Positions 1,368 to 41,605 of a stretch of 64,000 nucleotides of DNA are shown piece after piece. The stretch's first letter is position 1; every line of letters starts with the position of its first letter. The notes beneath the pieces were generated by a model. That model made no database searches. It saw only the letters and a list, made by a program, of their open reading frames with translations, and was not told where the DNA came from. The DNA is from a virus: positions 5,408 to 69,407 of IMG/VR virus record IMGVR_UViG_3300011116_000225; one strand, written 5' to 3'. The translations under genes were made by a program, and so were the position numbers.

Positions 1368-1370
1368 GAT

Positions 1371-6090: not shown

Positions 6091-6492
6091 ATGAAAGACA
6101 TTAGGCAAATCCTCACCGAAGACCTGGCGAAGAACTATGGCGGCTTTGCCATGACGGTTGATGCCTATTTTGATGGTTTGATGAATGCGCCCAAGACGGG
6201 GAACTTTGTTGTGCGTCAGGGTGACACTCTGATCTTGACAAAGAAGATTGAGAAAAACGGCATCGAGTTTCATTGCATCAATGGTGAGCGCGCAAAAGAC
6301 CTTGTTGCCAATGTGCAAAAGTACCTTGATGACTTGAAGGAGCATGGGTATGACTATGCCGTCACGTTCTACGACAACCCCCGAATCAATGACTTGATTG
6401 CACAACTCACTTACCCATCAGAGATCAAGAAGATTGATGATGGATTGTTCAGAACATACGAAGCCACAATGAGGTTCAAATGGGCGCATTAA
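6091..6492 (+). CDS. Virion assembly protein, possibly GNAT-like (P22 gp14/T7 gp13 slot)
   Basis: Size and position between hub and ejection proteins; conserved at 41204. Confidence 0.5.
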   Translation: MKDIRQILTEDLAKNYGGFAMTVDAYFDGLMNAPKTGNFVVRQGDTLILTKKIEKNGIEFHCINGERAKDLVANVQKYLDDLKEHGYDYAVTFYDNPRINDLIAQLTYPSEIKKIDDGLFRTYEATMRFKWAH

Positions 6493-11569: not shown

Positions 11570-12802
11570 ATGATGGCGACAGAGGCATACACAGGAAACC
11601 CGAACATCGCAAGACAGGGTGCCAGAGCGCGTCAGATCGCCCAGGCACGCAATGTTTCAGACATTGCTGACCCGCGCACCTACGGGTTCATGCAGGGCCT
11701 TCTAGGCTCCACGCCTGACGAGTTGGGTTACAGCATATTCGATGACCCAGAGACAAGACGAGCTGCCCAGCAAGCTGCGGAAGTTGGCCTTGTTGGCGGT
11801 GGTCTGCTGCAAGCGATACCAGTCATTGGCCCAGCGTTGAAGGGTTATGGTCGCCTGGCTGCTGGTCAGGTCAACCGGGCCATGATGGGTGAAGGTGGTT
11901 TGCTGGGTCCGATCACGCCGCAGCCAATGTATGTTGTGCCGCCTGGGAAGAGTATTAATCCACTTAATCTGAACAAAGGAATTTACAAACCAGAGTTAAC
12001 GATGGAGGAAATGCTCAAGGTCAAAGACATTCCTACTGTTGATCGAGTGAAGCAATCAATTGATTTGGTTGGCGAAAAAGAATTTGAAAAGATGGTTAAT
12101 GCTCAGTATAAAAAATATAAACCATCAGACCAAGATCAAGAGGCAATGCTTGTTGAGTCTGTAACTCTTGACATTCTTGGAAGAGCGCAAAGATCCCCCT
12201 ACCCCCAACAGGCAGCATTAGATCTTGCGCAGCAACGGGCCGCACTGCCTGTCAGTGAAGGTGGTTTAGGTTTGCCAGCGAACAATACGCCTGAGATGAG
12301 AGCGCAGGCGATGGGGTTTGATACCCCTGTTTATCATGCAACTGATGTTAATTTCACTTCAATAAATCCATCTGTCAAAGGAAAATATGGCGCTGGTGTT
12401 TATACAGCTACAACACCAAAATATGCGGAAATATATGCACAAGGTGAAAACGCAAGAACTCTTCCTTTAATGGCAAGAGGAAAATTAGCAAGTGATGATG
12501 AAAGAATTGCAATTGCAGATCAGATGCTTGAACAATATCAAACCAAAGAAGGTATGGATGTTCCTCTTTGGAAAAAAATGACAAAAGAAGAATTAGCTAA
12601 TAGAGGATATACAGGCGTAAGTATTGGAAAAGAAAGATTAATGTTCAACCCATCTGATTTACGCTCACGTTTTGCCGCATTTGACCCATTCCGCAAAGAT
12701 GTGGCAACTGCAACGGCAATGGGGGTTGCACTGCCAGATCTGCTGGCAGCAGAACCTACGCCGCAACCTCAATCATCTGGGTTGCTATATCCATTCCCAT
12801 AA
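11570..12802 (+). CDS. Putative ejected effector with C-terminal ADP-ribosyltransferase-like (ART-PolyVal type) domain
   Basis: VYHAT...F...GKYGAGVYTAT...AEIYA...GYTGV...ERLMFNP pattern; AT-richer 3' half; absent from copy 2. Confidence 0.55.
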   Translation: MMATEAYTGNPNIARQGARARQIAQARNVSDIADPRTYGFMQGLLGSTPDELGYSIFDDPETRRAAQQAAEVGLVGGGLLQAIPVIGPALKGYGRLAAGQVNRAMMGEGGLLGPITPQPMYVVPPGKSINPLNLNKGIYKPELTMEEMLKVKDIPTVDRVKQSIDLVGEKEFEKMVNAQYKKYKPSDQDQEAMLVESVTLDILGRAQRSPYPQQAALDLAQQRAALPVSEGGLGLPANNTPEMRAQAMGFDTPVYHATDVNFTSINPSVKGKYGAGVYTATTPKYAEIYAQGENARTLPLMARGKLASDDERIAIADQMLEQYQTKEGMDVPLWKKMTKEELANRGYTGVSIGKERLMFNPSDLRSRFAAFDPFRKDVATATAMGVALPDLLAAEPTPQPQSSGLLYPFP

Positions 12803-19752: not shown

Positions 19753-19866
19753 ATGGAATCAAAAGAAGAATTCTGGCAACTGCTGGTGCTCATGTTGGCA
19801 CGGCGGGTGTACGAATTAGAAGAACGGCTCAAGAAATTGGAGAAGAAATGCAAGCCGAACAAATAG
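19753..19866 (+). CDS. 37-aa coiled-coil peptide
   Basis: MESKEEFWQLLVLMLARRVYELE...; conserved at 53509. Confidence 0.55.
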   Translation: MESKEEFWQLLVLMLARRVYELEERLKKLEKKCKPNK

Positions 19867-21941
19867 CAAAGGCGCTTGGCAACGCAAAGAGAGTTGGCAA
19901 AGGATGGTTGGCAAGTTGCCCATTGCCAGGGCATGGACAGGGCCATGGAGACAAGAACCCGAGTCTTTCCATCAGTGATGGAGATGACGGCAAACCCCTC
20001 TTTAAGTGCCACTCTGGTTGCGATCAGCATGAAGTGTTTGCGGCCATCAGGGATTACGGGCTGCTGCCAGACATTGAGATACGTGACCCTTTGGCATCGA
20101 TCAAGCCACTGCCTGCGCTCCAGGCACCAGTCCTTGAGCATGAGTGGGTTTATGTTGACGAGTATGGGGACCCGCTGTTTGTCAAGCAGAGATTTAAGAC
20201 CAGCACGGCCAAGGGTAAAGATTACAAGCTCATGCGCTGCGTCAAACAGCCAGATGGAACCCATGCCAGGTTTCCAGGGTTCAAAGACACGCGCCTGGTG
20301 CCCTATCGATTCCCCGAACTGCTGAACGCAAAGGCTGCGGGAAGGACCATCTTTTTGACCGAAGGCGAGAAGGCAGCCGATGCCTTGGTATCAATTGGAG
20401 TCATTGCCACAAGTGCTCATGCGGGATCAGGGTCATGGCCCGAGGAGATCACCCAGTATTTTGCTGGGGCAGTTGTCATCATGGTCCCAGACAACGACCT
20501 GGCGGGTTGGAAGTACGCCCACAAGGTGGCCGCAGCCTTGGTCCCGGTGGTGAAGTCCTTGAGGATCTTGGACCTGCCAGTTGAAGCGGCAACAGATGAT
20601 GCCTGGGAATGGGTCAACGTCTTGGGCGGCACCAGGCAAGAACTGGTCGAATTGGCAAAGGTCAGCCCATTGGTGACCTCGCAAGATGATGTAACGATCC
20701 CGGCAAGATTGGTGGCGGCACCGCAAAGCTCAGTTGCAGAACCATTTGCCGAATCTGCCGAACAGGTTGCAGAACCCAAAACCCAGGAACCTTACAAACC
20801 CTTCAAGATCGAGTCCTGGCAGTCAGTCAAGGATGAACCCGTCAACTGGTTAATCGAAGGCGTGATCCCTGAGAAGTCTTTTGTGGCCCTGTATGGGCCG
20901 CCAGCGTCATTCAAGTCATTCATTGCCATGGACATTGCCGAGTGCATCGCATCAGGCCGTGACTGGTTGGGAAACAAGATCAACGGCACCGGGCCAGTCC
21001 TATACATTGCCGGCGAAGGTCATGGCGGTATCGGTGCCAGGATTGCAGCCATCAAGCAGCACCACAACACGCCAGATGATGCACAGGTGTACGTTGTGCG
21101 CTCCCAGATCAACCTCAGATCAAGCGTTGATGATTTCTTGGCGCTCATTTCGGCCATCGATGAGCTGGTCAAGGAACTGGGTGTCGACCTGCGCATGATC
21201 ATCATCGATACCCTGGCCAGAGCATTTGGCGGGGGAAATGAGAACTCGAGTGATGACATGGGTGCCTTCATCCAGGCCACGGGAAAGATCCAAAACAGGT
21301 ACAGGTGCTCACTTATGCTGCTGCACCACGCTGGCAAGGACACGACAAAAGGACTGCGTGGGCACTCCAGTCTGCTGGGTGCCGTGGACACGCAAATGGA
21401 GATCATGCGGTTTCCAGAAACCACCAAAGGCTTGATCCTCATGTCCAAGCAAAAGGACGGTGAGGACGGTCAGAGGTACGGGTTTGAGGCCATCACGGTG
21501 GACATTGACAGGTCAGATCTGGGCCTGGAGAACGGCTCCAGCCTGGTCATTGAGGCGTCAGAGGTTGGCGAGATGAGGTCAGCAGACGCAGAAAATAAGC
21601 CAGAAAAAGGCAAAGCAATTGGCGCAAAACAGAAGATTGCTGAGAAGTCACTAATTGTTGCAATTAAAACCTTTGGCTCCATTATGGACACGCCAGAGGG
21701 ACGCAAAAACACCATCAGTTTGGAGCAGTGGAAGGCCGAATTCACGGCCATGATCGGGTCAGATGTGACCTCAAACCAGCTCGCAACGTACTGGGGAAGG
21801 GCCAAGGATCACGTCATAAAGAGTGGATTCGGGACCATCAGGAACAGCAGCGTTTGGGCAAACCGTAAGGACGTGACCACTGGTTTTGAGGCAGAGGCGC
21901 TGCTGAAAGCCGGGAAACTGGCTGCGTTGGTTGATGAATGA
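19848..21941 (+). CDS. Primase-helicase (Zn-finger, TOPRIM, RepA/AAA_25 helicase)
   Basis: CP...H...CHSGC, TEGEKAAD, PDND..G, GPPASFKS Walker A, IIDTL Walker B, HHAGKD, RGHSSL. Confidence 0.9.
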   Translation: MQAEQIAKALGNAKRVGKGWLASCPLPGHGQGHGDKNPSLSISDGDDGKPLFKCHSGCDQHEVFAAIRDYGLLPDIEIRDPLASIKPLPALQAPVLEHEWVYVDEYGDPLFVKQRFKTSTAKGKDYKLMRCVKQPDGTHARFPGFKDTRLVPYRFPELLNAKAAGRTIFLTEGEKAADALVSIGVIATSAHAGSGSWPEEITQYFAGAVVIMVPDNDLAGWKYAHKVAAALVPVVKSLRILDLPVEAATDDAWEWVNVLGGTRQELVELAKVSPLVTSQDDVTIPARLVAAPQSSVAEPFAESAEQVAEPKTQEPYKPFKIESWQSVKDEPVNWLIEGVIPEKSFVALYGPPASFKSFIAMDIAECIASGRDWLGNKINGTGPVLYIAGEGHGGIGARIAAIKQHHNTPDDAQVYVVRSQINLRSSVDDFLALISAIDELVKELGVDLRMIIIDTLARAFGGGNENSSDDMGAFIQATGKIQNRYRCSLMLLHHAGKDTTKGLRGHSSLLGAVDTQMEIMRFPETTKGLILMSKQKDGEDGQRYGFEAITVDIDRSDLGLENGSSLVIEASEVGEMRSADAENKPEKGKAIGAKQKIAEKSLIVAIKTFGSIMDTPEGRKNTISLEQWKAEFTAMIGSDVTSNQLATYWGRAKDHVIKSGFGTIRNSSVWANRKDVTTGFEAEALLKAGKLAALVDE

Positions 21942-21967
21942 GTCATGCGAACGTTGACAATGTCATC

Positions 21968-22100
21968 CACCACAAACACCACAAACACCACAGATGTGGT
22001 GAGGTTGTGGTGCCACATTCACCACAAACACCACAAACACCCCTATAAGGGGTTGTTTGTGGTGTGGTGTGTGGTGTGGTGTTTTGTTGGTGTAGTGTTT
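21968..22100. repeat. Iteron-like CACCACA(AA)/TGTGGTG direct and inverted repeat array; putative replication origin
   Basis: Five CACCACA units plus inverted TGTGGTG units around a CCCC-TATAA-GGGG hairpin, just after the primase-helicase stop. Confidence 0.7.
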
Positions 22101-22135
22101 AGCAAATTGATGATTAATGGATTGGAGGTAAAAGG

Positions 22136-22834
22136 ATGAGCGCAAAACAGGGTCAGGTGGGTCAGGGCAAAAGTCGGATGCCAGGTCGTGGGGTCAAGCC
22201 AGATTTCCCGGCGACCGATTTTGAGATCAGGCAGGCATCATGGTTGGCTGAAATTGAGCGCGTTAAGGTGGATCAGGATCGAAAATGGGGTACTGATAGA
22301 TTGTGTACTTTAGTTGATCTAGGGTTTCGGGAGAAATTCTGGCAGCAACAGCAAAGGGTTTGGCAGGCTTGTCAGGCCAGGGACAGTGAAAGGCTTGAGA
22401 AGTCAGCAGCAGGCATGGTCAGGGCGTATCAGGCGCTCGAGGCCTGGGCAGTCCAGCACGCAGTGCCTGTGCGGCCTGCCGTGGGCGCGGTTGAGCACGT
22501 TGGCAAAGATGGGAAACTGATGGTGGTGGTCGCAACCAAGCAAGATGCGGTCTGGTATCGCGAGAACCGTCCAGACGTTGAAGGCCAGCACGTTTGGTCC
22601 ATGGAGGAGATCGAGCTGCTGATTGAGGCTGAGATCAACCAGGCAGTGGTCGAGGCAAAGATCAGGTACGCTAGGTTTGACCCGGTGGTGGTCAATGTGG
22701 AGAAGTTGGGGGGTGAGACGGGCTTTGATGATTTTGTCAATGACCTGGATCTGTCAGCGCCAACGAAGGCACCTAAAATGTTTGACAGCAAAACAGCGGA
22801 GAAATTCAAGCATGGACAAAATCAGGCGATTTAA
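22136..22834 (+). CDS. Conserved hypothetical protein upstream of terS
   Basis: GGAGG RBS; conserved at 57152. Confidence 0.8.
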   Translation: MSAKQGQVGQGKSRMPGRGVKPDFPATDFEIRQASWLAEIERVKVDQDRKWGTDRLCTLVDLGFREKFWQQQQRVWQACQARDSERLEKSAAGMVRAYQALEAWAVQHAVPVRPAVGAVEHVGKDGKLMVVVATKQDAVWYRENRPDVEGQHVWSMEEIELLIEAEINQAVVEAKIRYARFDPVVVNVEKLGGETGFDDFVNDLDLSAPTKAPKMFDSKTAEKFKHGQNQAI

Positions 22835-22898
22835 GGCACTTTGTGCCAAATGCTGGGGTTGGGTACTTGGGCGCGTAAAAAGCGCTGGAAGGGGCTAA
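22812..22898 (+). CDS. 28-aa peptide
   Basis: MDKIRRFKALCAKCWGWVL...; same length and sequence kept at 57828-57914. Confidence 0.4.
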   Translation: MDKIRRFKALCAKCWGWVLGRVKSAGRG

Positions 22899-22902
22899 AA
22901 AC

Positions 22903-23334
22903 ATGGCTGGAAGACCTAAGATGCGCCGCGATCTCGAGCTGCTCGAGGATTTGCCCGAGGATATGGTCTTTGCCATGTTTGAGGCAGGCAAGCCGATCAG
23001 CACAATCTGCTATGAGCTTGGAATCGGGCGCAGGGCGCTTGAGAAGTGGATCGAGGAAAATGACCGCGATGATATGATTGCGCGTGCGCGCGCCAAGGCC
23101 GCCGATGAGCTTGCGTGCGAGACGCTGGCGATAGCGGACAGCGCCGATCCGGAGCACGCCGCGCACGCTCGCGTCCGCATCCAGACGCGCCAGTGGCTGG
23201 CTGAGAAGTGGAAACCAAGCGTTTATGGCACCAAACAGGCAGCGATCCAGGTCAACATTCACTCGATGCGCATGGACGCGCTGCGCCATGCCGAGGTCAT
23301 CGAGGCCGAGTTATCCACAGGCGAAGGCAAATAA
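22903..23334 (+). CDS. terS: Terminase small subunit (Sf6/P22-type)
   Basis: N-terminal HTH; ARA..AD.L..E.L.IAD and R.RI.TRQWLA.K..P.VYG motifs. Confidence 0.85.
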   Translation: MAGRPKMRRDLELLEDLPEDMVFAMFEAGKPISTICYELGIGRRALEKWIEENDRDDMIARARAKAADELACETLAIADSADPEHAAHARVRIQTRQWLAEKWKPSVYGTKQAAIQVNIHSMRMDALRHAEVIEAELSTGEGK

Positions 23335-23396
23335 GTGACAACTTATCCACAGATCAGCACTGGTTGCCTGTGGATAACTGTCATTTCTGTGCATAA
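23311..23396. promoter_or_regulatory. Cluster of four DnaA boxes
   Basis: TTATCCACA 23311, TTATCCACA 23343, TGTGGATAA 23369, TGTGCATAA 23388. Confidence 0.8.
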
Positions 23397-23652
23397 CTGC
23401 CAGAGCACGCATGGAATAACTTAACATAATGGACAATGTAACGATTAGGCTTTTGGTAACGATCAGCAGATTCCAGCATCCATGCCGCATTGCACGCAAG
23501 CAGTCACTAACCAGCAATTCACAGGCGCGTGCAAGTTGCGCACAGGCTGCTGGCCGCGGTGGCGCTGACCCTGGCCAGCCTGGCCGCGCCGAACCCCCCC
23601 TTCGCGCTCGCGGCGGGGGCAGGCTGACGCAGCACCTTGAGAAACACCGACC

Positions 23653-25137
23653 ATGACCCACCCCCCTACCCCAACCCCCATCGCGCCCAGCGTCCCAAAA
23701 AAAATTAAAAAAATTGAGACAACGCTCGACCCAAACCAGAACCCGTTTGTCGAATTCGTAAGACTCTACAAGAACAACCCTGTAAGGTTTGTGCAAGAAG
23801 TGCTGGGCGTCACGCCTGACCCGTGGCAGGCTGAATTTCTGATGCACATTGCCAAGGGCAACCGCCGCATCTCTGTCAGGTCTGGACACGGCGTTGGCAA
23901 ATCAACCGCTGGCGCTTGGGCCATGCTTTGGTATTTGCACTTACGGTTCCCGGTCAAGATTGTGGTCACGGCCCCCACCAGCAGCCAGTTGTATGACGCC
24001 TTGTTTGCGGAACTCAAGCGCTGGATCAAGGCCATGCCGCAGCTCTTGCAGGATCAGCTCGAGGTCAAACAAGACCGCATCGAGGTCAAGGATGCCGCCA
24101 CCGAGGCCTTCATTTCAGCGAGAACATCCAGAGCCGAGCAGCCCGAGGCCTTGCAAGGCGTGCACAGCGACAACGTGATGCTGGTGGGAGATGAGGCATC
24201 GGGTATTCCAGAACAGGTATTCGAGGCCGCTGGTGGCTCCATGTCTGGACACAATGCTGTCACCTTGCTGCTGGGCAACCCGGTGCGCAGCTCAGGATTT
24301 TTCTACGACACCCACAACAGACTTGCTGATGACTGGGTGACTATGAAGGTAGCGTGCGCTGACTCACCTCAAGTCAGCGAGGCCTACATTGAGGAGATGA
24401 AGGCGCGTTACAGTGAAGAGTCCAATGCTTACCGCATTCGCGTCTTGGGTGAATTCCCGCGCAGTGACGATGACACGGTGATCCCCATGGAGTTGCTGGA
24501 GATGGCCTCCAATCGGGATGTTGAGGCGAGTCAGCACGCCAGGATGGTGTGGGGCTTGGACGTTGCCAGGTTTGGTTCTGATAAGTCAGCCTTGTGTAAG
24601 AGGCAGGGCAATGCTGTCACTGAACCCATCAGGACGTGGAAGAACTTGGATTTGATGCAACTCACGGGTGCCATTGTGGCTGAGTGGGAAGTCTTGATGC
24701 CAAGCGCCAGGCCGCAAGAGATCTTGGTTGACTCGATTGGTTTGGGCGCTGGGGTTGTTGACCGGCTGCGGGAGTTGGGGTTACCGGCTCGCGGGATCAA
24801 TGTGGCCGAGAGTCCTGCCATGGGCAATACTTACAGGAATCTGAAAGCTGAACTCTGGCACAAGGCCAAGGCTTGGCTTGAGGCGCGGGATTGTCGGATG
24901 CCCAAAGATGAGGCGTTGATCGCTGAGTTGGCCACAGTGCGGTATTCGTTCACGTCCAGCGGCAAGATCCAGATTGAGGGCAAAGACGAGATCAGAAAGC
25001 GCGGCCTGCCATCCCCTGACCGGGCAGATGCGTTTTGTTTGACCTTTGCGTCTGACGCCGTTGTGGGGATGTACGGGTCGGCTGGGTCTGCCAAGTGGTC
25101 GCAGCCTTTGCGCCGCAACCTGCCAAGGGTTGCATAA
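23653..25137 (+). CDS. terL: Terminase large subunit
   Basis: SGHGVGKS Walker A, VGDEASG Walker B, LGNP, GLDVARFGSD nuclease, SPDRADA. Confidence 0.95.
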   Translation: MTHPPTPTPIAPSVPKKIKKIETTLDPNQNPFVEFVRLYKNNPVRFVQEVLGVTPDPWQAEFLMHIAKGNRRISVRSGHGVGKSTAGAWAMLWYLHLRFPVKIVVTAPTSSQLYDALFAELKRWIKAMPQLLQDQLEVKQDRIEVKDAATEAFISARTSRAEQPEALQGVHSDNVMLVGDEASGIPEQVFEAAGGSMSGHNAVTLLLGNPVRSSGFFYDTHNRLADDWVTMKVACADSPQVSEAYIEEMKARYSEESNAYRIRVLGEFPRSDDDTVIPMELLEMASNRDVEASQHARMVWGLDVARFGSDKSALCKRQGNAVTEPIRTWKNLDLMQLTGAIVAEWEVLMPSARPQEILVDSIGLGAGVVDRLRELGLPARGINVAESPAMGNTYRNLKAELWHKAKAWLEARDCRMPKDEALIAELATVRYSFTSSGKIQIEGKDEIRKRGLPSPDRADAFCLTFASDAVVGMYGSAGSAKWSQPLRRNLPRVA

Positions 25138-25145
25138 TTGGGGGG

Positions 25146-25302
25146 CGTCAACACGCATGGGGATTGCAAGGCTAACCATTTCCGACCTGCCGGAGCCCGA
25201 GAGGTTAGCTGTAAGCAGGACAGTCCCCAGCCGTGTTGGTTGGCCTTACCCGTTCACAGAAACTGCGGATAGACGCTACGGCTGATGGATACGTCAACCA
25301 AC
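25146..25302 (+). ncRNA. Candidate structured RNA with nested stems and a pseudoknot (copy-1 only)
   Basis: CAACACG/CGTGTTG, TGGGGATTG/CAGTCCCCA, GCTAACC/GGTTAGC, TCCG/CGGA; loop CCTGC vs GCAGG; second stem GTTGGTTGGC/GTCAACCAAC. Confidence 0.55.
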
Positions 25303-25327
25303 AAACTATTTTCAAGGAGCAATGACT

Positions 25328-25492
25328 GTGAAGATGACCAAAGCGCAAAAGAAGGTTGGCAAGGTGATGGGCGAGTACAAGTCTGGGACTTTGCATTCAG
25401 GCAAGGGCGGCAAGGTTGTGAAAAACCCCAAGCAAGCCATTGCCATTGCGTTGTCCGAGGCCAAGATCAAGCCCAAGAAGGCGATGAAATGA
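25328..25492 (+). CDS. Small basic protein, DUF6496-like
   Basis: KVGKVMGEYK.GTLHSG...KQAIAIALSEA; AAGGAG RBS. Confidence 0.7.
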   Translation: MKMTKAQKKVGKVMGEYKSGTLHSGKGGKVVKNPKQAIAIALSEAKIKPKKAMK

Positions 25493-27114: not shown

Positions 27115-27622
27115 CCTGGGATCTGGCCGGGACCGGCGCACTGAGTGCGTGAACGCTGATATTCGCGCCGATGTTGGCGCTGACTGGATCGTTGACATTT
27201 CCAAATTGTCATATGGTGAGGTGGTTCAGTCGCCAATTGATTTGGTGACTATTCGGCCAGGGATGTTTTCAAAGATCATCGCCATTGACGTGCTCGAGCA
27301 TATCCATGACCTGGTCGCGGCCATGACCAATTGCCGGGATCTGCTGGAGATGGGTGGCGAGATGCACATATCAGTACCCTATGACCTGAGTCTGGGTGCT
27401 TGGCAAGACCCCACCCATGTGCGTGCATTCAACGAGAACTCATGGGTTTATTACTGTGCATGGGCTTGGTACTTGGGTTGGACGGGTTCAAGGTTCAACA
27501 TGGAGCACCTGGAGTTTAGATTTAGCCCAGGCACAGACTTAGAATTGCCGCAAGATCAATTGCTGCGCACGCCCAGGGCGGTTGAGTCCATGTATGTGGT
27601 TTTGAAGAAAGTCAAAATATGA
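27089..27622 (+). CDS. Class I SAM-dependent methyltransferase
   Basis: LNLGSG motif I, NADI, DVLEHI, GGEM.I.VP, QDPTH. Confidence 0.8.
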   Translation: MPSNGLTLNLGSGRDRRTECVNADIRADVGADWIVDISKLSYGEVVQSPIDLVTIRPGMFSKIIAIDVLEHIHDLVAAMTNCRDLLEMGGEMHISVPYDLSLGAWQDPTHVRAFNENSWVYYCAWAWYLGWTGSRFNMEHLEFRFSPGTDLELPQDQLLRTPRAVESMYVVLKKVKI

Positions 27623-29811
27623 TCAACGATCTGGAAATTAGCACCGACATTGCGTCCACCGAGCAGATGGACGACAGCGAGCTGCAAGGCATCATCACGT
27701 CTGACCTCGAGGACGCGATCAGCTACATCGATTCGGACCTGAGTCCCATTCGCGCCAAGGGCACCGAGTACTACCGTGGCGACCCCTTTGGCAATGAGGA
27801 AGAGGGGCGCTCCCAGGTTGTGGCCATGGAGGTGCGCGACACGGTGAGCGCCATGATGCCAAGCCTCATGCGCGTGTTTTTCAGCACCGAGAATGTTGTT
27901 GAGTACATCCCCCGTGGACCAGAGGACGTAAAGGGTGCGCAGCAGGCAACTGACTATGCCAACCTGATCTTCACGTCTGACAACAACGGGTTTATGACCA
28001 CCTATGCCTTGTTCAAAGACGCATTGGTGCGCAAATGCGGCATCGCAAAGTACTGGTGGGAAGAAGAGGAAAAGGTCCGCATTGAAGAGTATTCGGGCCT
28101 GGATGACCAGACCCTGCAAATCTTGTCCCAGGAAAATGCCGAGGTCAAGATTGTTGTGTCTTACCCTGACCCGTCAATTTCCCAGGAAATGATCGACCAG
28201 GTCAACGCGCAGGCAATGGCAGCAGGCCAGCCAGCACCGCCCGTGCCCATGATCCATGACGTGCAGATCAAGCGCGTGATCAAAGATGGGCGCGTGCGGA
28301 TCATGGCCGTGCCGCCAGAGGAGCTGGTGATTGATCGCCGGGCACGGTCCTTTGAGGATGCTGCCATCATTGCGCACCGCCAGATGTTGACCGTGGCCGA
28401 TCTGATCGCCATGGGCTATGACGAGGATGAGGTGCGCGACAACCTGACCTCAAACGACCTGGACTCCAACGAGGAGTTTTTGGCGCGACAGCCTTTGAAC
28501 AACATCACGGGCAACAACAACACGACCAACCCTATGATGCAGCGCGTTTTGTACGTTGAGGCGTACTCTCGGGTGGACTATGACGGGGACGGCATCCCCG
28601 AGCTGCGCAAGATCTGCTGCATGGGGTCTGGCTACAACATTGTGCGCAACCTGCCTGCCAGTTATATCCCCTTTGTGGACTTTCCCTGCGATCCAGAACC
28701 CCACACCTCGCCCCTGGAGTCCATGTCGATTTTCGATATCACGCATGATTTGCAAGAGATCAAGTCTGAGATTTTGCGCAACACGCTGGACTCTTTGGCC
28801 CAGTCGATCCACCCCAGGACCGCGATTGTTGAGGGCCAGGTCAACATCGATGACGTGCTCAACAACGAAACGGGTGCCGTGATCAGGATGCGTGCTCCCG
28901 GCATGGTGCAGCCATTCAACACCCCCTTTGTGGGCCAGGCCGCATTTCCCATGCTGGACTATGTGGACCAGATCAAGGAAGACCGCACCGGCATGAGCAA
29001 GGCCGCCATGGGTTTGAACGCTGACGCCTTGCAGTCGAGCACCAAGGCAGCGGTGGCCGCCACCATCAGCGCAAGCCAAGGCCGCATTGAGCTGACCTCG
29101 CGCATCTTGGCCGAGGGCATGAAAAAGCTCTTTAAGGGAATCTTGTTCTTGATCACCACCCACCAGGACAAACCCCGCATGGTGCGGCTGCGCAACGAGT
29201 GGGTGCAGATCGACCCCCGCGCCTGGGACAACTCCATGGACGTGTCGATCAACATTGGTCTGGGCCAGGGTGACGTGAACGAGCGCTTGCAGGGTCTGAT
29301 GATGATCTTGCAAAAGCAAGAGCAGGCCTTGAGCACCATGGGTGCCGATAACCCATTTGTGACCATGACCCAGTTTTCGCGCACGCTGCGCAAGATTGTG
29401 GAATTGTCCGGGTTCAAGGATGCCAGCCAGTACTTCAAGGACGTGCCCGAGGGCTATATGCCGCCTCAGAAACCCGAGCGCCCAACACCAGAACAGGTGC
29501 TGGCCCAGGTTCAGGCCGAGTCCATCCAGGCCGATATTCAGAAAAAGGCTGCCGAGCTTGAATTGAAGCGTGATCAGATGATTCGGGATGATGATTATCG
29601 AAGAGATCAACTCGCCCAGGACTTAATGCTCAAGAAGTACGAGCTTGAGTTAAAGTACGGGGTGCAGATTAGCACTGCCGAGATTGAAGCCCGGCAGGCT
29701 ATGGACAGAGAGGCACTGATCCAGCAGTCAGCTCTCATGGCCCAGGCCATGCAGCAGCCGACCCAGGCACCAGTGCCGCCCATCAACCCTAATAGTGGAA
29801 TGGTTCAATGA
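27619..29811 (+). CDS. Portal protein
   Basis: 730 aa between terL and scaffold; YYRG, EEGRSQVV, FKDAL..KCGI.K motifs. Confidence 0.9.
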   Translation: MINDLEISTDIASTEQMDDSELQGIITSDLEDAISYIDSDLSPIRAKGTEYYRGDPFGNEEEGRSQVVAMEVRDTVSAMMPSLMRVFFSTENVVEYIPRGPEDVKGAQQATDYANLIFTSDNNGFMTTYALFKDALVRKCGIAKYWWEEEEKVRIEEYSGLDDQTLQILSQENAEVKIVVSYPDPSISQEMIDQVNAQAMAAGQPAPPVPMIHDVQIKRVIKDGRVRIMAVPPEELVIDRRARSFEDAAIIAHRQMLTVADLIAMGYDEDEVRDNLTSNDLDSNEEFLARQPLNNITGNNNTTNPMMQRVLYVEAYSRVDYDGDGIPELRKICCMGSGYNIVRNLPASYIPFVDFPCDPEPHTSPLESMSIFDITHDLQEIKSEILRNTLDSLAQSIHPRTAIVEGQVNIDDVLNNETGAVIRMRAPGMVQPFNTPFVGQAAFPMLDYVDQIKEDRTGMSKAAMGLNADALQSSTKAAVAATISASQGRIELTSRILAEGMKKLFKGILFLITTHQDKPRMVRLRNEWVQIDPRAWDNSMDVSINIGLGQGDVNERLQGLMMILQKQEQALSTMGADNPFVTMTQFSRTLRKIVELSGFKDASQYFKDVPEGYMPPQKPERPTPEQVLAQVQAESIQADIQKKAAELELKRDQMIRDDDYRRDQLAQDLMLKKYELELKYGVQISTAEIEARQAMDREALIQQSALMAQAMQQPTQAPVPPINPNSGMVQ

Positions 29812-31064: not shown

Positions 31065-32027
31065 ATGACAATCGTAAGCAACACCTTTACGACCTACTCT
31101 GCAAAGGGTATTCGGGAAGATTTGAGCAATGTGATCACCAACATCGCTCCCGAAGAAACTCCATTCCAATCCAACATTGGCCGCGAAACCATCTCCAACA
31201 CTCTGTTTGAATTCCAAACAGATACCCTGGCAGATGCCGCAGCAAATGCGCAGCTCGAGGGTGATGACGTTGGCACCTTTGACTCTGTTGTCGCAACTGT
31301 GCGCGTGACCAATTACGCTCAGATCAGTCGTAAAACTATTGTTCTCTCTAACACAGAGGAAGTAGTTAATAAGGCAGGCAGACGCAGTGAGCTTGCTTAT
31401 CAAATTGCGAAAAGAGGCAGCGAGCTAAAGCGCGATCAAGAATTCATTTTCTTGAACGGCGGCATTGCTGTTGCAGGCAACACCACCACTGCTCGCGTGA
31501 CCGCATCCTTGGGCGCGTTTGTCAAGACCAACACTGACAAGCAGACCAACGGTGTCGATCCCAGCTATACCACGCTGCCCAACAGCGCTCGCACTGACGG
31601 CAACGTGCGTACCTTCACCGAGACGATCTTGAAGAACGTCATTCAAAAGGTGTGGTCCGCTGGCGGTACTCCGAAGATCCTGATGGTTGGCCCTGTCAAC
31701 AAGCAGCGCGTCTCTGGTTTCTCTGGCATTGCATCTTCACGTTTCAACATTGATGGCGGCGCAAAACCCGCGACATTGATTGGCGCTGTAGATATTTATG
31801 TCTCAGATTTCGGGAATGTGAGTACTATAGCTAACAGGTTCCAACGTGAGCGTGATGCATGGGTGCTTGATCCCGACTATGCCAAGATGGTTGTGCTGCG
31901 TCCTTACCAGCAAGTTGAGTTGGCAAAGACTGGTGACGCTGAGAAGCGTATGTTGTTGATCGAATACGGCTTAAAAATCACGGCTGAAAATGCCCATGGT
32001 TTGGCGGCTGACTTGATCACTTCTTGA
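31065..32027 (+). CDS. Major capsid protein (DUF5309/SU10-like)
   Basis: REDLSNVI.NI.PEETPF, NY.QI.RK, ELKRD.E, YVSDFG, LAKTGD motifs. Confidence 0.9.
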   Translation: MTIVSNTFTTYSAKGIREDLSNVITNIAPEETPFQSNIGRETISNTLFEFQTDTLADAAANAQLEGDDVGTFDSVVATVRVTNYAQISRKTIVLSNTEEVVNKAGRRSELAYQIAKRGSELKRDQEFIFLNGGIAVAGNTTTARVTASLGAFVKTNTDKQTNGVDPSYTTLPNSARTDGNVRTFTETILKNVIQKVWSAGGTPKILMVGPVNKQRVSGFSGIASSRFNIDGGAKPATLIGAVDIYVSDFGNVSTIANRFQRERDAWVLDPDYAKMVVLRPYQQVELAKTGDAEKRMLLIEYGLKITAENAHGLAADLITS

Positions 32028-36472: not shown

Positions 36473-36477
36473 CAAAT

Positions 36478-37155
36478 GTGGACCCCATCAGCATCCTCCT
36501 TTTGGCCTCGAGTGCATTCTCTGCAATCAAGCAGGGCATTGCCACATACAAGGATGTTAAGAACACTGCTGGTGACGTTAAAAAGATCGTCAACGAGATC
36601 GCTGGCATGTTTGGGCCAAACCCAAGCAAGGAACAAAAGAAGCAGATCGTTGCTGAACAGAAGCGCGTGCAAGAAGTGGCAGCCTATGACCCCAACCAGG
36701 TCATGGGAGACATTGCAAAGCGCTTGGGTGAATTCATGCGGCATATGCAGCAGATCCAAGACTACTACCATGAGGAAGAGCGCAAGTCAAAAGAGGAAGT
36801 CTATGACGGGGCAGACTCTCTGGCAGAGCGTGCCTTACAGCGCACACTTGTACTCACCCAGTTGACGCAAATGGAGACCGACTTGCGCGAGCAAATGGTT
36901 TACGGGGCACCTCCAGAATTAGGCAACCTGTGGACACGGTTTAACGAGATGCGTGAGCAGATTTCAATTGAGCAAGAGCAAGCCAGGGCAGTGCGAGATC
37001 AACGTGAGGCGCAGGCGAGATGGCAACGAAGACGGGTAATCGCGGACCTGCAAGACAAAGCAATCTACCTGGGAGCCGCCTTGTGCGTGATCCTATACCT
37101 GGCCGTGTTTTGGTCACTCCTGGTGATGGACCGAAAGACCAGATGGGGTTTCTGA
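36478..37155 (+). CDS. Coiled-coil membrane protein (copy 2)
   Basis: Homolog of 1371-2048. Confidence 0.75.
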   Translation: MDPISILLLASSAFSAIKQGIATYKDVKNTAGDVKKIVNEIAGMFGPNPSKEQKKQIVAEQKRVQEVAAYDPNQVMGDIAKRLGEFMRHMQQIQDYYHEEERKSKEEVYDGADSLAERALQRTLVLTQLTQMETDLREQMVYGAPPELGNLWTRFNEMREQISIEQEQARAVRDQREAQARWQRRRVIADLQDKAIYLGAALCVILYLAVFWSLLVMDRKTRWGF

Positions 37156-37337
37156 TCGCGCTCATATGTATGGTGCTGGTTTTCTGTTTGATGCTGCCGA
37201 TAATTACAGTAATCTACTTTGATACCCTGGCGGTGCAAAAGGAAAGCAAAGCCCAGATTGATCGAATGGAGAGGCTGCGCAAGCAGCTCGAGGAAGACCG
37301 AAAGAAGATGGACCAGGCCAACAGAAAGGAAGACTGA
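37143..37337 (+). CDS. Small single-TM protein (copy 2)
   Basis: Homolog of 2036-2230. Confidence 0.7.
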   Translation: MGFLIALICMVLVFCLMLPIITVIYFDTLAVQKESKAQIDRMERLRKQLEEDRKKMDQANRKED

Positions 37338-37544
37338 ATGAGACTGCTGCTTTGTCTGACCATCATGGTGCTTGCTGGGTGCGAGGATCGGTATCGATAC
37401 ACCTGCCAGAACCCTGACAACTTTGAACTCAAAGAGTGCCAGAAACCTCGCTGCTTATTTACGCAAACCTGCCCTGAGTATTTAGTTGCCCCGGTATTGA
37501 CAAACAAGATTGAACCAGCAAAGGCCGAAGATGCTAAAAAGTAA
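37338..37544 (+). CDS. Cys-rich lipoprotein (copy 2)
   Basis: Lipobox LAGC. Confidence 0.75.
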   Translation: MRLLLCLTIMVLAGCEDRYRYTCQNPDNFELKECQKPRCLFTQTCPEYLVAPVLTNKIEPAKAEDAKK

Positions 37545-38001
37545 ATACACCCCTGAAGAGATTGAGGTTCGTATCTGGGGCTTTGTTGTGGTGATGATCA
37601 CCGTCATTTTGCTTGGCATTGTGTTTGCCCTGCTCTATTCAGTGACGTTTGTCACCCAACCCATCAAGTCCATGGCGCCCATCGACCAGGCTTACACCAA
37701 GATGCTCAACGACATTGTGCTGCTGATCGTTGGCGGTATCGGCGGCATTGTGGGCAAGCGTGCCGTGGGGGCCGTCACCGCTGCAATAAACCCAGCACCG
37801 GCACCTACACCTTCCCCGGCTGCACCAGTGCCTTCTAGCCCTGTTTCTGCCCCTCCCAGCGGTGCTCTGCCAGCCTGGATCAATCCACCTCTGGATGAAA
37901 CCTGGACGCCGCCACCTCCACCGACAACGCCACCCGAGCACCTGGAACCCGATCATGTCCGCGAGGAGATCGCAGCAGCAAGACGTGAGGCTGGGCAGTG
38001 A
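37531..38001 (+). CDS. Two-TM protein, holin candidate (copy 2)
   Basis: Homolog of 2412-2888. Confidence 0.65.
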   Translation: MLKSKYTPEEIEVRIWGFVVVMITVILLGIVFALLYSVTFVTQPIKSMAPIDQAYTKMLNDIVLLIVGGIGGIVGKRAVGAVTAAINPAPAPTPSPAAPVPSSPVSAPPSGALPAWINPPLDETWTPPPPPTTPPEHLEPDHVREEIAAARREAGQ

Positions 38002-38462
38002 ATCCATACCTGATCATCGCGGCCATGATCGCCATTGGCGGTGCCTATGGATATGGCCATCATGTTGGTTATGCTGACCGGGACGCTGAGATGCAGGCTC
38101 ACATTGCCAAGCTCAATGAAGAGTCACGCGCCAAGGAGCAAGAGCTGGCAAGCTCACTGAACAATCAAACCGAAACATTGCGAAAGGCCAAGAATGAGAT
38201 CAACAAAAAACAGTCTGACATTAATGCTCTTGTTGATGCTGGCCGGTTGCGCCTCCCGGTCCCAGCCGCCCCAAGTTGCGTACAAGCCACCCCAGATGCC
38301 GCCCCTGCCGTCAGAGATCGGGACGAAGCAAGACCCGACCCTTACAGAGAGGCTATTAAGGCTGTTGTCGCCATCGCCATCGAGGGAGACAGAAACACCG
38401 TCCAACTCAACGCCTGCATCGATACCTATAACAAAGTGAGGGAGCAGATCAATGGTAAATAG
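37998..38462 (+). CDS. Rz: Rz-like i-spanin (copy 2)
   Basis: Homolog of 2885-3352. Confidence 0.85.
   Translation: MNPYLIIAAMIAIGGAYGYGHHVGYADRDAEMQAHIAKLNEESRAKEQELASSLNNQTETLRKAKNEINKKQSDINALVDAGRLRLPVPAAPSCVQATPDAAPAVRDRDEARPDPYREAIKAVVAIAIEGDRNTVQLNACIDTYNKVREQINGK
38194..38439 (+). CDS. Rz1: Rz1-like o-spanin (copy 2)
   Basis: Nested lipoprotein with LAGC. Confidence 0.8.
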   Translation: MRSTKNSLTLMLLLMLAGCASRSQPPQVAYKPPQMPPLPSEIGTKQDPTLTERLLRLLSPSPSRETETPSNSTPASIPITK

Positions 38463-39048
38463 TGATCAACTCAAAAAGCTGCACATTGGCCCCGAGTGGG
38501 TTGATGCGCTCAATGAAACCTTTGGCCGGTTCAATATCTCCACCAAGAAGCAGCAGGCTGCATTCATTGGTCAATGCGGCCATGAATGTGGGAACTTCAA
38601 GGTTCTGCAAGAGAACTTGAACTACCGCGCAGCCACCTTGATGAAGTTGTGGCCCAAGCGTTTCCCCACTCTTGACGTTGCCAACCAGTACGCTGGGAAC
38701 CCAAAGAAGATCGCCAATATGGTCTATGCCAACCGCATGGGGAACCGTGACGAGGCATCAGGGGATGGTTTTCGTTTTTCGGGAAAAGGTTGCATCCAAT
38801 TGACCGGCCACAGCAACTATTTTCACGCAGGCCAAGCCCTGGGCGTTGACTTTGTCATGCAGCCCGAACTGGTCGCCACTCCCAAGTACGCTGCCTTGAC
38901 GGCAGGATGGTTCTGGTCAACGCATGACTGCAATCGTCTGGCTGAGGCAGGAGACTGGGCAGCCTTAACGCGCAAGATTAATGGCGGGATAATCGGTTTG
39001 GAAGACCGCATCAAACACACCAATGAGGCTTTGGCAGTCCTGACATGA
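38452..39048 (+). CDS. GH19 endolysin (copy 2)
   Basis: Same motifs as 3339-3935. Confidence 0.92.
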   Translation: MVNSDQLKKLHIGPEWVDALNETFGRFNISTKKQQAAFIGQCGHECGNFKVLQENLNYRAATLMKLWPKRFPTLDVANQYAGNPKKIANMVYANRMGNRDEASGDGFRFSGKGCIQLTGHSNYFHAGQALGVDFVMQPELVATPKYAALTAGWFWSTHDCNRLAEAGDWAALTRKINGGIIGLEDRIKHTNEALAVLT

Positions 39049-39698
39049 CAAACCTGTACCAGCAGCTCGAAACCCCGGCACCGCCAGATCTGCCATCACC
39101 CGGCAGTGCGTATGACGAGCGCCTGACAGCGCAAACCCATCGCGGCTTGCTGGTGTACTTTCGCAAGCTGACCAATATCCTGTCAACGGTCCTTGGGCCG
39201 CGAGGTGGCAAGTACTTGAACCTGCCTTATGGGTCATTTCAAGATGGGACCGACCAGGCAGCAGCCAACACCACAACGGCCTACGCCATCACATTTGACA
39301 CAACTGACTATGCAAATGGGATCACTCTGTCAAATACTTCACGTCTAAACGTGTCCCAGGGCGGTTTGTACAACGTGCAATTTAGCGTGCAATTCAAAAA
39401 CACAACAAATGACACGCAAGACGTTGAGGTCTGGTTTCGCAAGAATGGCGCTGACATTGCCAAGTCAGGATCACGTTTTGGGTTGGGGCCGAGGAAAAGC
39501 GCTGGAGATCCATCGCACACCATCGCAGCCTTGAACTACTTTGTTGATCTGGCCGAGAGCGATTACATCCAACTAATGTGGCGGCCATCAGATATTGGCG
39601 TCTCCATTGAGCAGTACCCTGCCGGGACCAGCCCAACCCGGCCAGCAACTCCCTCAGTCATTGCCACAGTGAGTTTTGTGTCCAATCTTTCCGCATAA
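39045..39698 (+). CDS. Virion structural protein (copy 2)
   Basis: Homolog of 3932-4585. Confidence 0.55.
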   Translation: MTNLYQQLETPAPPDLPSPGSAYDERLTAQTHRGLLVYFRKLTNILSTVLGPRGGKYLNLPYGSFQDGTDQAAANTTTAYAITFDTTDYANGITLSNTSRLNVSQGGLYNVQFSVQFKNTTNDTQDVEVWFRKNGADIAKSGSRFGLGPRKSAGDPSHTIAALNYFVDLAESDYIQLMWRPSDIGVSIEQYPAGTSPTRPATPSVIATVSFVSNLSA

Positions 39699-39705
39699 TC
39701 CCATC

Positions 39706-41187
39706 ATGGCACTCACCGCACTCAGAATCCCCCCAGGCGTTTACCGCAACGGCACTGAATATCAGTCAGCCGGGCGATGGTTTGACGCCAACCTGGTTCG
39801 CTGGTTTGAGGGTACGTTGCGGCCCATTGGTGGATGGCGCAAAAGATCGGCATCCCAACTGACCGGGTCATGCCGTGGCTTGATCACCTGGCGCAACAAC
39901 TCAGGGGATCGGTTTATTGCAGCGGGAACTCATTCCAAGCTGTACGCCATGAATGCGGCAGGGACTCTCAAAGACATTACGCCAACTGGGCTGACTGTTG
40001 GCATTGCCGATGCGGCCACAAAGACCGGGTATGGGTACTCCACCTATGGCAACTTTGCCTATGGTGTGGCAAGACCAGACACAGGCAGCGTCACTCCAGC
40101 AACAACCTGGAGTCTGGATACCTGGGGCGAGTACCTGGTCGCCTGCTCAGATGCCGATGGCAAGCTCTACGAGTGGCAGTTGGGCTTTTCAACGCCGACC
40201 CTGGCCGCTGTCATTACCAACGCGCCAACGGGCTGCAACGCCGTTATGACCACGGCAGAGCGCTTTGTCTTTGCCCTGGGTGCCGGTGGAGATCCCCGCA
40301 AGGTCCAATGGTGTGATCAGGAAAACAACACCATCTGGACCCCGGCAGCCACCAACCAGGCAGGTTCATTTGAGCTGATTACTGTTGGGTCACTGAAAGC
40401 TGGCAAGCGCGTGCGCGGTGTCAACTTGCTGTTCACTGATGTCGATGTCCACGTCAGCACCTACATTGGCCTGCCTTACGTTTACTCCTTTGAGAAGGCC
40501 GGGTCAGGTTGTGGCTTGATCTCCTCCCAGGCCGTTGCGGCCATTGATACGGCTGCGATCTGGATGAGCAATTCTGGTTTTTGGGTCTACGATGGATACG
40601 TCAAGCCACTGGCTTGTGACGTTGGCGACTACATCTTCCAAAACATCAACGCCAACCAAGTCAGCAAAGTCTATGCTGTACACAACTCAAAGTATGGCGA
40701 GATCATTTGGTTCTACCCATCGAATGCCAGCAATGAGAACGATTCTTATGTGACGTATAACTACCGTGAGAATCACTGGGCGATTGGATCTCTGTCTCGC
40801 ACGGCTGGCACTGACCGGGGCGTTTTCTTGAATCCCTTGATGGTCTCTGCTGACAGCTATATCTACGAGCATGAGGTTGGCTTTGCGTATGACTCTGTTG
40901 CGCCTTTCGTTGAGTCTGGCCCCGTTGAGATCCAACCAGGTGAAAACATTATGAATGTGCGTCAGTTGATCCCTGACGAGCAGACCCTGGGAGAGGTTGT
41001 TGTGTCCTTCAAGACTCGCATGTACCCCACTGCCACAGAAACAACTTATGGACCCTACAGCGCCACCGAACCCACCAGCGTGCGGTTTTCAGCGCGTCAG
41101 GTCAAGATCAGATACACCGGGGCGGTGCTGGGTGACTGGCGAGTTGGCCTGAACCGTTTGGACGTGACACCCGCTGGCAAGCGTTGA
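39706..41187 (+). CDS. Tail hub / DNA stabilization protein (copy 2)
   Basis: Homolog of 4593-6074. Confidence 0.7.
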   Translation: MALTALRIPPGVYRNGTEYQSAGRWFDANLVRWFEGTLRPIGGWRKRSASQLTGSCRGLITWRNNSGDRFIAAGTHSKLYAMNAAGTLKDITPTGLTVGIADAATKTGYGYSTYGNFAYGVARPDTGSVTPATTWSLDTWGEYLVACSDADGKLYEWQLGFSTPTLAAVITNAPTGCNAVMTTAERFVFALGAGGDPRKVQWCDQENNTIWTPAATNQAGSFELITVGSLKAGKRVRGVNLLFTDVDVHVSTYIGLPYVYSFEKAGSGCGLISSQAVAAIDTAAIWMSNSGFWVYDGYVKPLACDVGDYIFQNINANQVSKVYAVHNSKYGEIIWFYPSNASNENDSYVTYNYRENHWAIGSLSRTAGTDRGVFLNPLMVSADSYIYEHEVGFAYDSVAPFVESGPVEIQPGENIMNVRQLIPDEQTLGEVVVSFKTRMYPTATETTYGPYSATEPTSVRFSARQVKIRYTGAVLGDWRVGLNRLDVTPAGKR

Positions 41188-41203
41188 GACTTAAAATTCA
41201 GCC

Positions 41204-41605
41204 ATGAAAGACATCAGACAAATCCTCACCGAAGACCTGGCAAAGAACTATGGTGGCTTTGCCATGACAGTTGATGCCTATTTTGATGGTCTGATGAATG
41301 CACCCAAGACGGGTAACTTTGTTGTGCGCCAGGGCGACACTCTGATCCTGACAAAGAAGATCGAGAAGAACGGCATCGAATTTCATTGCATCAATGGTGA
41401 GCGCGCCAAAGACCTTGTGTCCAACGTGCAGAAGTACCTCGATGACTTGAAGGAAAACGGGTATGACTATGCCGTCACGTTCTACGACAACCCCAGGATC
41501 AGCGAACTATTCCAGCAACAACCATATCCATTTGAAGTGAAAAAAATTGATGATGGTTTATTTAGAACATACGAAACAATTGTGAGGTTTAAATGGGCGC
41601 ACTAA
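41204..41605 (+). CDS. Virion assembly protein (copy 2)
   Basis: Homolog of 6091-6492. Confidence 0.5.
   Translation: MKDIRQILTEDLAKNYGGFAMTVDAYFDGLMNAPKTGNFVVRQGDTLILTKKIEKNGIEFHCINGERAKDLVSNVQKYLDDLKENGYDYAVTFYDNPRISELFQQQPYPFEVKKIDDGLFRTYETIVRFKWAH

Follow-up and report, generated by a model that had tools for sequence, protein, structure and literature searches.

The window described here, 64,000 nt of a 69-kb virus record in IMG/VR (IMGVR_UViG_3300011116_000225), contains a structured insert of 184 nt directly after terL, the gene for the large terminase. Our preferred reading, which we consider probable, is that the insert is one unit, with modules A and B, of a family of framed non-coding RNA cassettes in uncultured freshwater phages, and that such units are co-transcribed, probably processed by tRNA enzymes, and carry cargo that acts in trans. 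Units of this family have covarying folds, fold on the sense strand, do not encode protein, form arrays that adjoin tRNA genes on the same strand, and turn over between nearly identical phages. The family is apparently undescribed.

Structure of the insert

The insert is made up of two modules (Table 1). Module A is a framed hairpin, with a base in which a small internal loop (CAU/AGC) separates a 6-bp stem from an 8-bp stem. The frame encloses the cargo, which has stems of its own, a pseudoknot, and a conserved single strand, AGCCCGAGAGG (25195-25205), that is invariant across the five aligned sequences. Module B is closed by an acceptor-like stem. The bases GUU(G) are common to the 3′ end of the basal stem of module A and the 5′ start of module B. 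An earlier first-pass annotation, made from the sequence alone, had described four nested stems (25149-55/25232-38, 25158-66/25221-29, 25171-77/25203-09, and 25181-84/25191-94), a pseudoknot between CCUGC (25186-90) and GCAGG (25215-19), and a second, competing 10-bp stem. All are present, and the second stem is the tRNA-acceptor-type closing stem of the family. The annotation had taken the insert for a single RNA element; it is structured, pseudoknotted, optional, and mobile as proposed, but it consists of two separable modules of a large phage family. The same annotation had also pointed to CGTCAAC at both ends. The heptamer is there (25146-52 and 25292-98) but it carries no weight, because a 7-mer repeat is expected by chance in 184 nt by our own estimate and related units lack it.

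The insert folds beyond chance. Module A alone (25150-25237) folds at -36.3 kcal/mol (z -3.84) and module B alone (25235-25305) at -24.9 kcal/mol (z -3.75), and in both cases none of 200 shuffles is as good. The whole 184-nt insert reaches -66.5 kcal/mol on the + strand (z -2.19, with 5 of 200 shuffles as good) and -60.4 kcal/mol on the - strand (z -0.97, 32 of 200). When the 64-kb window was scanned for the structure of the frame, a single site came up, on the + strand; 5 shuffles gave none. The insert is not repeated elsewhere in the 69-kb record, where we found only one 14-nt chance match.

Covariation in relatives

A pattern search specific for the cargo, in IMG/VR and metagenomes, found four further members of its class. 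Two are from IMG/VR (L155, on the same contig as the terL locus L019, and L457) and two from metagenomes (L458 and L462), where three of the five pattern matches are chance matches. In the resulting alignment of five sequences, pairs were counted on four nested stems and on a four-pair core of the pseudoknot; the effective number of sequences is four, because L457 and L458 are nearly identical. A standard pair is present in 98% of cells, and six pairs have changed on both sides, with at least one such change in each of the five helices. The covariation score was reached in 0 of 500 shuffles, and pairing falls to 25-49% when partners are shifted by 1-3 columns. The idea of a conserved RNA element had called for compensatory changes among metagenome relatives, and they occur in every helix.

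The pseudoknot keeps its pairing despite changed letters: CCUGC/GCAGG in the window, CUACCGU/ACGGUAG in L155, CUGCCGU/ACGGCAG in L457, and UACCGU/ACGGUA in L462. Shuffles of the loop and its partner gave an equally long match in 453 of 20,000 cases for the window and in 308 of 20,000 for L155. On the aligned sequences we regard the pseudoknot as real, in the sense that it covaries.

The stems of the frame also covary, as seen in sequences that were not chosen by the exact 16-mer search described below. The pairs there include GAGGAUUG/CAGUCCUC, GAGGAUUU/GAAUCCUC, UACACG/CGUGUG, AUCACG/CGUGAU, and GCGGAUUG/CAGUCCGC, and one L457 module has a wholly different frame stem (ACCUAUUU/AAGUAGGU). The CAU/AGC loop is kept throughout. 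In L457 and L458, the triplet shared by the two modules is GAU instead of GUU, and its partners at the start of module A (AUCACG) and at the end of module B (CCAUC) have changed along with it. Both partners changed with the triplet, and both pairings are therefore under selection; the competing pairing noted at first is thus conserved in relatives together with the A stem.

A family of framed cassettes

A search of IMG/VR with the 16-mer of the 5′ frame returned at least 120 stretches. The counts of instances, modules, and clusters that follow are among the matches listed. The 3′ arm (with up to three mismatches) is also present in 126 of 130 instances of the 16-mer, and a stricter parse gave 170 A modules, 159 of them unique, with lengths of 38-145 nt. 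The variable part of module A spans 4-110 nt across loci, and similarity clustering of the 159 unique modules yields about 104 cargo clusters. A B-type closing stem follows 141 of the 170 A modules (with AAC after it in 70 of the 141), and there are 129 unique B modules in 84 clusters. One strict-frame A module is found in 114 of 139 arrays, two in 20, three in 4, and four in 1.

The 3′ arm was not fixed by the search, and its variation opposite G is almost only from C to U. Positions 11 and 12 of the arm form G-C in 129 and 124 modules and G.U in 19 and 28, with any other non-pair in at most 1; position 15 forms U.G in 130 modules and U-A in 21. These G.U pairs would be A.C mismatches on the - strand, and the folding strand is therefore the + (sense) strand.

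The units do not code for proteins. An AUG within the frame is followed by a stop before the 3′ arm in 83 of 158 modules, the lengths of A modules modulo 3 (66, 42, and 50) have no triplet bias, and the aligned relatives of the window cargo differ by indels of 1, 2, and 3 nt. On these grounds we rejected a coding gene or a fragment of a decayed one, which the first-pass annotation had named as the explanation that would undo its proposal.

In bacterial and archaeal genomes, the 16-mer occurs in 113 stretches, within chance by our own estimate, and the 3′ arm is present in only 4. These four full modules are on contigs of metagenome bins that look phage-derived in our reading of the flanks. The family is therefore phage-borne, and a host chromosomal element was rejected on the same counts. 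The genes that recur next to the cassettes encode TerL (24), an HNH endonuclease (17), a helical protein of about 150 amino acids (10, always downstream), DUF6496 (8), and the small terminase (8), and they are borders of the packaging and head module.

Some further observations concern the arrays. Up to five units are found in L172 (- strand, array at about 975-1804) and L120 (- strand), placed between an HNH gene and the late gene that follows it, or ahead of the small terminase gene, in a region that contains the cos site in HK97-like phages. A long cargo (GGUGUCUUGCAAGCCAGCC...UUCAUCCCGAUG) occurs in L120 and L130 and also just upstream of the L172 array. Another cargo (...GGUUCAUGUGGUUGCCGCC...CUGGUAAUUCCUC...) lies within an A frame in some phages and is a B module in others (L084, L100, L107, and L177 versus L007 and L019); because the same cargo is found in both, cargo can move between the two scaffolds. 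By eye, a small hairpin with a GAAA-type loop stands directly before the first A module in many loci (e.g., L102, L101, L106, L114, L175, and L179), and in L090, L178, L191, L194, and L202 this place is taken by a terminator-like hairpin with a T run. Arrays are often at contig ends (position 2 in L099, 50 in L115, 64 in L154, and 5028 of 5050 in L143), which fits assembly breaks at a repeated, strain-variable region.

Presence, absence, and exchange after terL

The window consists of two related phage genomes of about 35 kb each in tandem, 80-92% identical over aligned blocks in a self-comparison. The alignment is broken exactly at the insert (25143/25329 in copy 1 versus 60169/60191 in copy 2). 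From the terL stop, the distance to the next gene is 184 nt (to ATG 25322) or 190 nt (to GTG 25328) in copy 1, and 27 nt in copy 2, from the stop at 60163 to ATG 60191. This agrees with the spacings of about 190 and 26 nt that had been reported at first.

We confirmed 594 relatives of terL in IMG/VR and kept the best 80 of these loci; the gap after terL was measured in the 72 loci with a locatable DUF6496 gene. It is 7-26 nt in 57 of the 72 loci and 97-532 nt in the other 15, and L022 has an insert too. One A+B unit is present in L019, L080, and L022, module A alone in L023 and L045, module B alone in L007, L008, L009, L015, L016, L018, L020, and L078, two units in L014 and L046, and three units in L039. 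Where terL is at least 96% identical (20 sites, made up of 18 loci and both copies in the window), the site is empty in 10 cases and holds module B only in 7, A+B in 2, and two units in 1. The module B of L019 is the same as that of L007, its module A is homologous to the window A, and the window B is different; modules A and B therefore assort independently.

Cargo is found in new surroundings as well. Cargo is at least 90% identical in 63 pairs; the flanks on both sides are dissimilar in 25 of these pairs and similar in 11, and the other pairs could be compared in part or not at all. Public runs vary in the same way, with contigs that join across the insert in three of them (X4, X13, and X20). 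One contig of X4 matches 24972-25384 with 0 differences, and one of X13 has the window A module (2 differences) joined to other sequence past 25240. A 95-nt contig from an RNA library covers 25162-25240, for which DNA carry-over is possible. The insert behaves as a mobile or swappable unit, and the site after terL is a hot spot. The proposal of a mobile, optional, structured RNA was well founded, given the + strand fold and the presence, absence, and swapping in near relatives.

Module B and tRNA

The family consensus of module B is GUUGGUG...CACCAAC plus A; in the inserts after terL, CACCAAC mostly has AAC after it. Four B modules are recognized by the Rfam tRNA model (RF00005, gathering score 29): L186 (6178-6281, 44.9 bits), L014 (4031-4143, 43.3 bits), L109 (2082-2190, 39.3 bits), and L175 (1921-2033, 35.4 bits). 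The alignments span the whole model, with GUUGGUG/CACCAAC as the acceptor stem, the next A as the discriminator, and canonical D and T arms. In L186, L014, and L109, a stretch of 42-59 nt takes the place of the anticodon arm, and L175 has instead a 48-nt insertion in the D region. ARAGORN called the L014 copy only with introns allowed. Other B classes have the same closing stem and unrelated contents. In one of the classes, the closing stem covaries from GUUGGU/GCCAAC to GAUGGU/GCCAUC, and it is three paired bases longer in L106.

True tRNA genes are also close by. Of the 139 array regions, 17 contain canonical tRNA genes, 21 in total; every one of these is on the same strand as the modules, and 19 are downstream, often 6-10 nt past the array.

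A proposed processing model

We predict that read-through transcription covers the unit together with terL and the head genes, because no promoter or terminator was found at the insert on the + strand. For the same reason, the antiterminator suggested by the first-pass annotation has no basis. RNase P may cut between U25234 and G25235, as at the 5′ end of a tRNA, since the site has G at +1, U at -1, a stem of 7 bp or more, and an A after the stem. The acceptor features (a 7-bp stem, G1-C72, a discriminator, and U at -1) correspond in the window to the 10 bp from G in 25235-44/25293-302, A25303, and U25234. Enzymes that process 3′ ends would trim past the closing stem. Cleavage and trimming would release module B, and module A would stay as a stable hairpin RNA or a 3′ cap. 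The frames may thus serve as scaffolds for processing and stability and as homology for swapping, and the cargo RNAs would have a host or defence factor as their target in trans.

Several points weigh against this reading. The thermodynamic model assigns a probability of 0.0 to the B stem when the 184-nt transcript is intact. Beyond its 10-bp closing stem the window B does not resemble tRNA, as the D, T, and anticodon arms are absent. Searches of the insert for tRNA gave no Rfam match up to E 10 and 0 genes by ARAGORN with or without introns, and no relatives of the window module B were found in the related loci examined. RNase P cleavage at the window copy is thus proposed by analogy. The near-identity of the frame in most instances is partly a product of the exact 16-mer search. 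Neighbouring genes, with the strand taken from the longest open reading frame (ORF), are on the same strand in 146 cases and on the opposite strand in 70, a count that is too noisy to be of use in G+C-rich DNA. The evidence from public runs is limited to assembled contigs. The trans role is the weakest step; it is suggested by the number of classes, the conserved folds that they have of their own, and the recurrence of cargo in different backgrounds.

The A and B pairings can be fitted to this order of events. The A state of the intact transcript is at -66.5 kcal/mol and the B state at -58.7 kcal/mol, so that A is favoured by 7.8 kcal/mol. Given this difference and the B stem probability, we take the pairings to follow one another, with cleavage between them, and see no equilibrium switch.

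A more specific version of our reading is possible, and we offer it tentatively. The phages may share an exchangeable library of more than 100 kinds of folded RNA, including pseudoknots and tRNA mimics, on hairpin or tRNA-body scaffolds that double as processing signals and recombination joints. Such a library would be an RNA counterpart of the islands of accessory and anti-defence genes that encode proteins. The cargo could then be decoys or aptamers against host factors, such as defence nucleases that target tRNA.

Alternative explanations

The unit might be purely a cis element for processing and stability, which cuts the late polycistronic mRNA of terL and the head genes and caps the pieces, with cargo that has no function of its own. 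We consider this unlikely, but it accounts for the place of the unit within an operon, 20-25 nt upstream of the next start codon, and for arrays, many of which stop just short of a ribosome-binding site. With its small internal loop, the frame forms a nearly continuous helix of about 17 bp, a shape predicted to be compatible with T7-type RNase III sites, where the enzyme cuts within the internal loop of an intergenic hairpin, and three 38-nt "empty" frames are almost without cargo. Such an element would not explain about 104 cargo classes, each with its own fold, compensatory changes, and pseudoknots, or the at least 90% identical cargo that stands in unrelated flanks in 25 of 63 pairs. Arrays are also found before tRNA genes and not only before mRNAs, and close relatives have no module at all.

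A mobile element or recombination site at the DNA level, with arms recognized by a recombinase and RNA folds that are incidental, seems to us quite improbable. The inverted-repeat arms around variable content, the tandem arrays, and the presence or absence of units between nearly identical phages would suit an element similar to integron attC sites or miniature inverted-repeat transposable elements (MITEs). So would the apparent clean loss of module A between L019 and L020 without target duplication, and the AAC/GTT triplets at all module borders. The resemblance to integron attC sites and cassettes lies in an imperfect two-box hairpin with a variable centre, in arrays of units, and in the AAC...GTT ends. 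The boxes of attC are RYYYAAC (R″) and GTTRRRY (R′), with AAC/GTT at the inner end of the R stem. Here, the basal stem has AAC/GTT at its outer end, with neighbouring bases that depart from RYYY/RRRY, so attC R boxes were not found. Unlike integron cassettes, the units carry no ORF as cargo, and the pairs under selection are RNA pairs (G.U) of one strand: these are fixed on the + strand, and the other strand would have A.C mismatches in their place. Covarying stems and a pseudoknot are present within the cargo itself, and tRNA-shaped B modules exist. The 69-kb record contains 0 matches to the family of tyrosine recombinases such as IntI (PF00589), which was found in 14 of 14 genomes used as a positive control. 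The full module was found in only 4 of the 113 bacterial and archaeal genome matches, on contigs that we read as phage-like. A MITE of the Correia type was rejected in particular; inverted arms are present, but there is no duplication at the L019/L020 junction, and the 159 modules yield about 104 clusters of internal sequence.

We also see only a slim chance that the units are a new class of self-cleaving ribozyme, in which the core is the frame (the CAU/AGC loop and the A/B junction) and the array is processed without host enzymes, as with theta ribozymes. A small conserved loop that persists while both stems covary, peripheral domains of widely varying length, and a position next to tRNAs would all fit, and PMC10879173 provides a precedent in theta ribozymes beside phage tRNAs. 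However, no ribozyme in Rfam 15 matches the insert even at E up to 10. There was no covariance-model match to known self-cleaving ribozymes (hammerhead, twister, twister-sister, pistol, hatchet, and HDV-like), and the ribozyme-like nature proposed at first finds no counterpart in this or any other Rfam family. The loop tolerates AUC and AGU variants that close one mismatch, and pairing of the 5′ and 3′ ends is simply nested, in contrast to HDV-like folds.

A conformational switch or riboswitch for the downstream head genes, with the A stem against the B stem, is the least probable explanation: both stems use GUU(G) and the GAU change in L457 and L458 comes with both partners, as expected if both pairings are selected, but the B state is 7.8 kcal/mol worse with the probability given above, there is no terminator and no clear sequestration of the ribosome-binding site tied to either state, and the same junction stands before tRNA genes, where there is nothing to switch. 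An equilibrium switch, as the first-pass annotation had envisaged, is not predicted.

Comparison with known systems

The window contains no match to Rfam 15 at gathering score, and neither the frames nor the cargos correspond to a family there. A permissive scan of 25000-25450 (E up to 10) gave four matches to snoRNA, miRNA, and RAGATH-16 families at chance level (E of at least 2.7), and scans of 23 related loci found nothing but tRNA. No GenBank phage record matches the insert, and the five-unit array of L172 matched among GenBank phages only an unrelated 80-nt stretch of a Pseudomonas phage. Two further pattern searches yielded little other than chance matches.

Closest to the cassettes are tRNA itself and the small stable RNAs of the T4 tRNA cluster, and, for the shuffling, the PeSL (promoter/stem-loop) cassettes. 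The T4 species 1 and 2 RNAs (rnaC/rnaD) are small stable non-coding RNAs in a phage tRNA cluster. Like them, the cassettes are non-coding and structured, lie among phage tRNA genes of the same strand, and are presumably excised by tRNA-processing enzymes. The cassettes differ in their standard frame, more than 100 cargo classes, tandem arrays, rapid swapping, and position in the packaging and head operon.

In engineered tRNA scaffolds, the anticodon arm is replaced by an RNA of interest. Some B modules are similar, with canonical acceptor, D, and T arms, a discriminator A, and a 42-59-nt domain in place of the anticodon arm. Lacking an anticodon arm, they would have no role in decoding. Unlike tRNA, the window B keeps the closing stem only. 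The tRNA-shaped B modules of L186, L014, L109, and L175 look like natural counterparts of the engineered scaffolds.

Two other candidates were rejected. Arrays of type III antitoxins (ToxI-like) are tandem, nearly identical direct repeats of about 34-45 nt; the units here differ in cargo and length (38-145 nt). A promoter for a phage RNA polymerase in the 5′ frame was set aside, as there is no RNA-polymerase Pfam match in the scanned ORFs. The largest ORF of copy 1 has 730 amino acids, and T7-type polymerases are larger than this.

The bacterial Y RNA YrlA is another modular RNA with a stem and a tRNA-like domain. PMC4201824 describes a long protein-binding stem joined to that domain, finds YrlA in 22 bacteriophages too, and reports that one member is cut by RNase P and receives CCA, with the 7-bp acceptor stem as a determinant of RNase P cleavage. 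The insert differs from YrlA in three respects. The motif GNCGAAN0-1G is absent from both strands of the insert, there are 0 matches to a Ro60/TROVE gene (PF05731) in the record, and there is no Rfam match.

PeSL cassettes mediate modular shuffling in T4-type phages according to PMC2839356 and PMC4122927. As there, short conserved non-coding motifs surround variable content and seem to favour its insertion, deletion, and replacement between close relatives. Unlike the PeSLs described there, which combine a promoter and a terminator around protein genes, the variable content here is folded RNA and has no promoter or terminator.

Thousands of unnamed candidate RNAs from IMG/VR, including tRNA-like ones, are reported in PMC10690425. 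Our literature searches gave no description of the frame or the array, and the supplementary tables of PMC10690425 (8,495 candidate RNAs from IMG/VR) may list the motif.

Genomic setting of the insert

The large ORFs of copy 1 are all on the + strand, and the features around the insert are listed in Table 1. The closest terL among GenBank phages is that of an uncultured freshwater phage (69.5% identity). Aligned blocks of the two copies include 1369-6494 versus 36476-41607 and 19830-25143 versus 54846-60169, and several blocks are without alignment. The tandem copies may represent either a true concatemer or two co-occurring strains that the assembly joined.

The DUF6496 gene that follows the cassette has a different ribosome-binding region (25322-25336 versus 60191-60202). 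In copy 1, it has an extra in-frame ATG-ACT before a GTG, and this GTG aligns with the ATG of copy 2. From this alignment, GTG 25328 is the likely start in copy 1. A 410-aa ORF at 11570-12802 has a weak match to the ADP-ribosyltransferase domain of polyvalent proteins (20.4 bits, with a cut-off of 31.2).

Table 1. Modules of the insert and neighbouring features in the window
Feature	Position	Strand	Remarks
Small terminase, Sf6 type, copy 1	22903-23334	+	
terL (large terminase), upstream neighbour	23653-25137	+	494-aa ORF; Pfam Terminase_6N, 1.8e-07
Module A, framed hairpin	25150-25237	+	AACACG / CAU / GGGGAUUG ... CAGUCCCC / AGC / CGUGUU
Cargo of module A	25167-25220	+	stems 25170-77/25203-10 and 25181-84/25191-94; pseudoknot 25186-90/25215-19
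Module B	25235-25302	+	10-bp acceptor-like stem 25235-44/25293-302, then tail AAAC
Linker with ribosome-binding site AAGGAG of the DUF6496 gene	25303-25327	+	same linker after modules in related loci
Small DUF6496 gene, downstream neighbour	25322-25492	+	Pfam DUF6496, 6.2e-12
Portal, SU10 type, copy 1	27619-29811	+	
Capsid protein, SU10 type, copy 1	31065-32027	+	
Empty site, copy 2	60164-60190	+	27 nt, terL to DUF6496 gene

Significance

The accessory functions of phages have been studied almost only as proteins. If our reading is right, environmental phages have a large and fast-moving pool of structured RNA. The cassettes would explain a class of assembly breakpoints and of "optional" intergenic inserts in phage metagenomes. 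They would be carried on natural scaffolds, one of which resembles the tRNA scaffold engineered for RNA expression in bacteria, and such scaffolds are offered for RNA expression. The family would also supply a defined collection of RNA folds for tests on host defence and on tRNA-processing machinery, and each piece can be tested directly with a transcript of about 200 nt.

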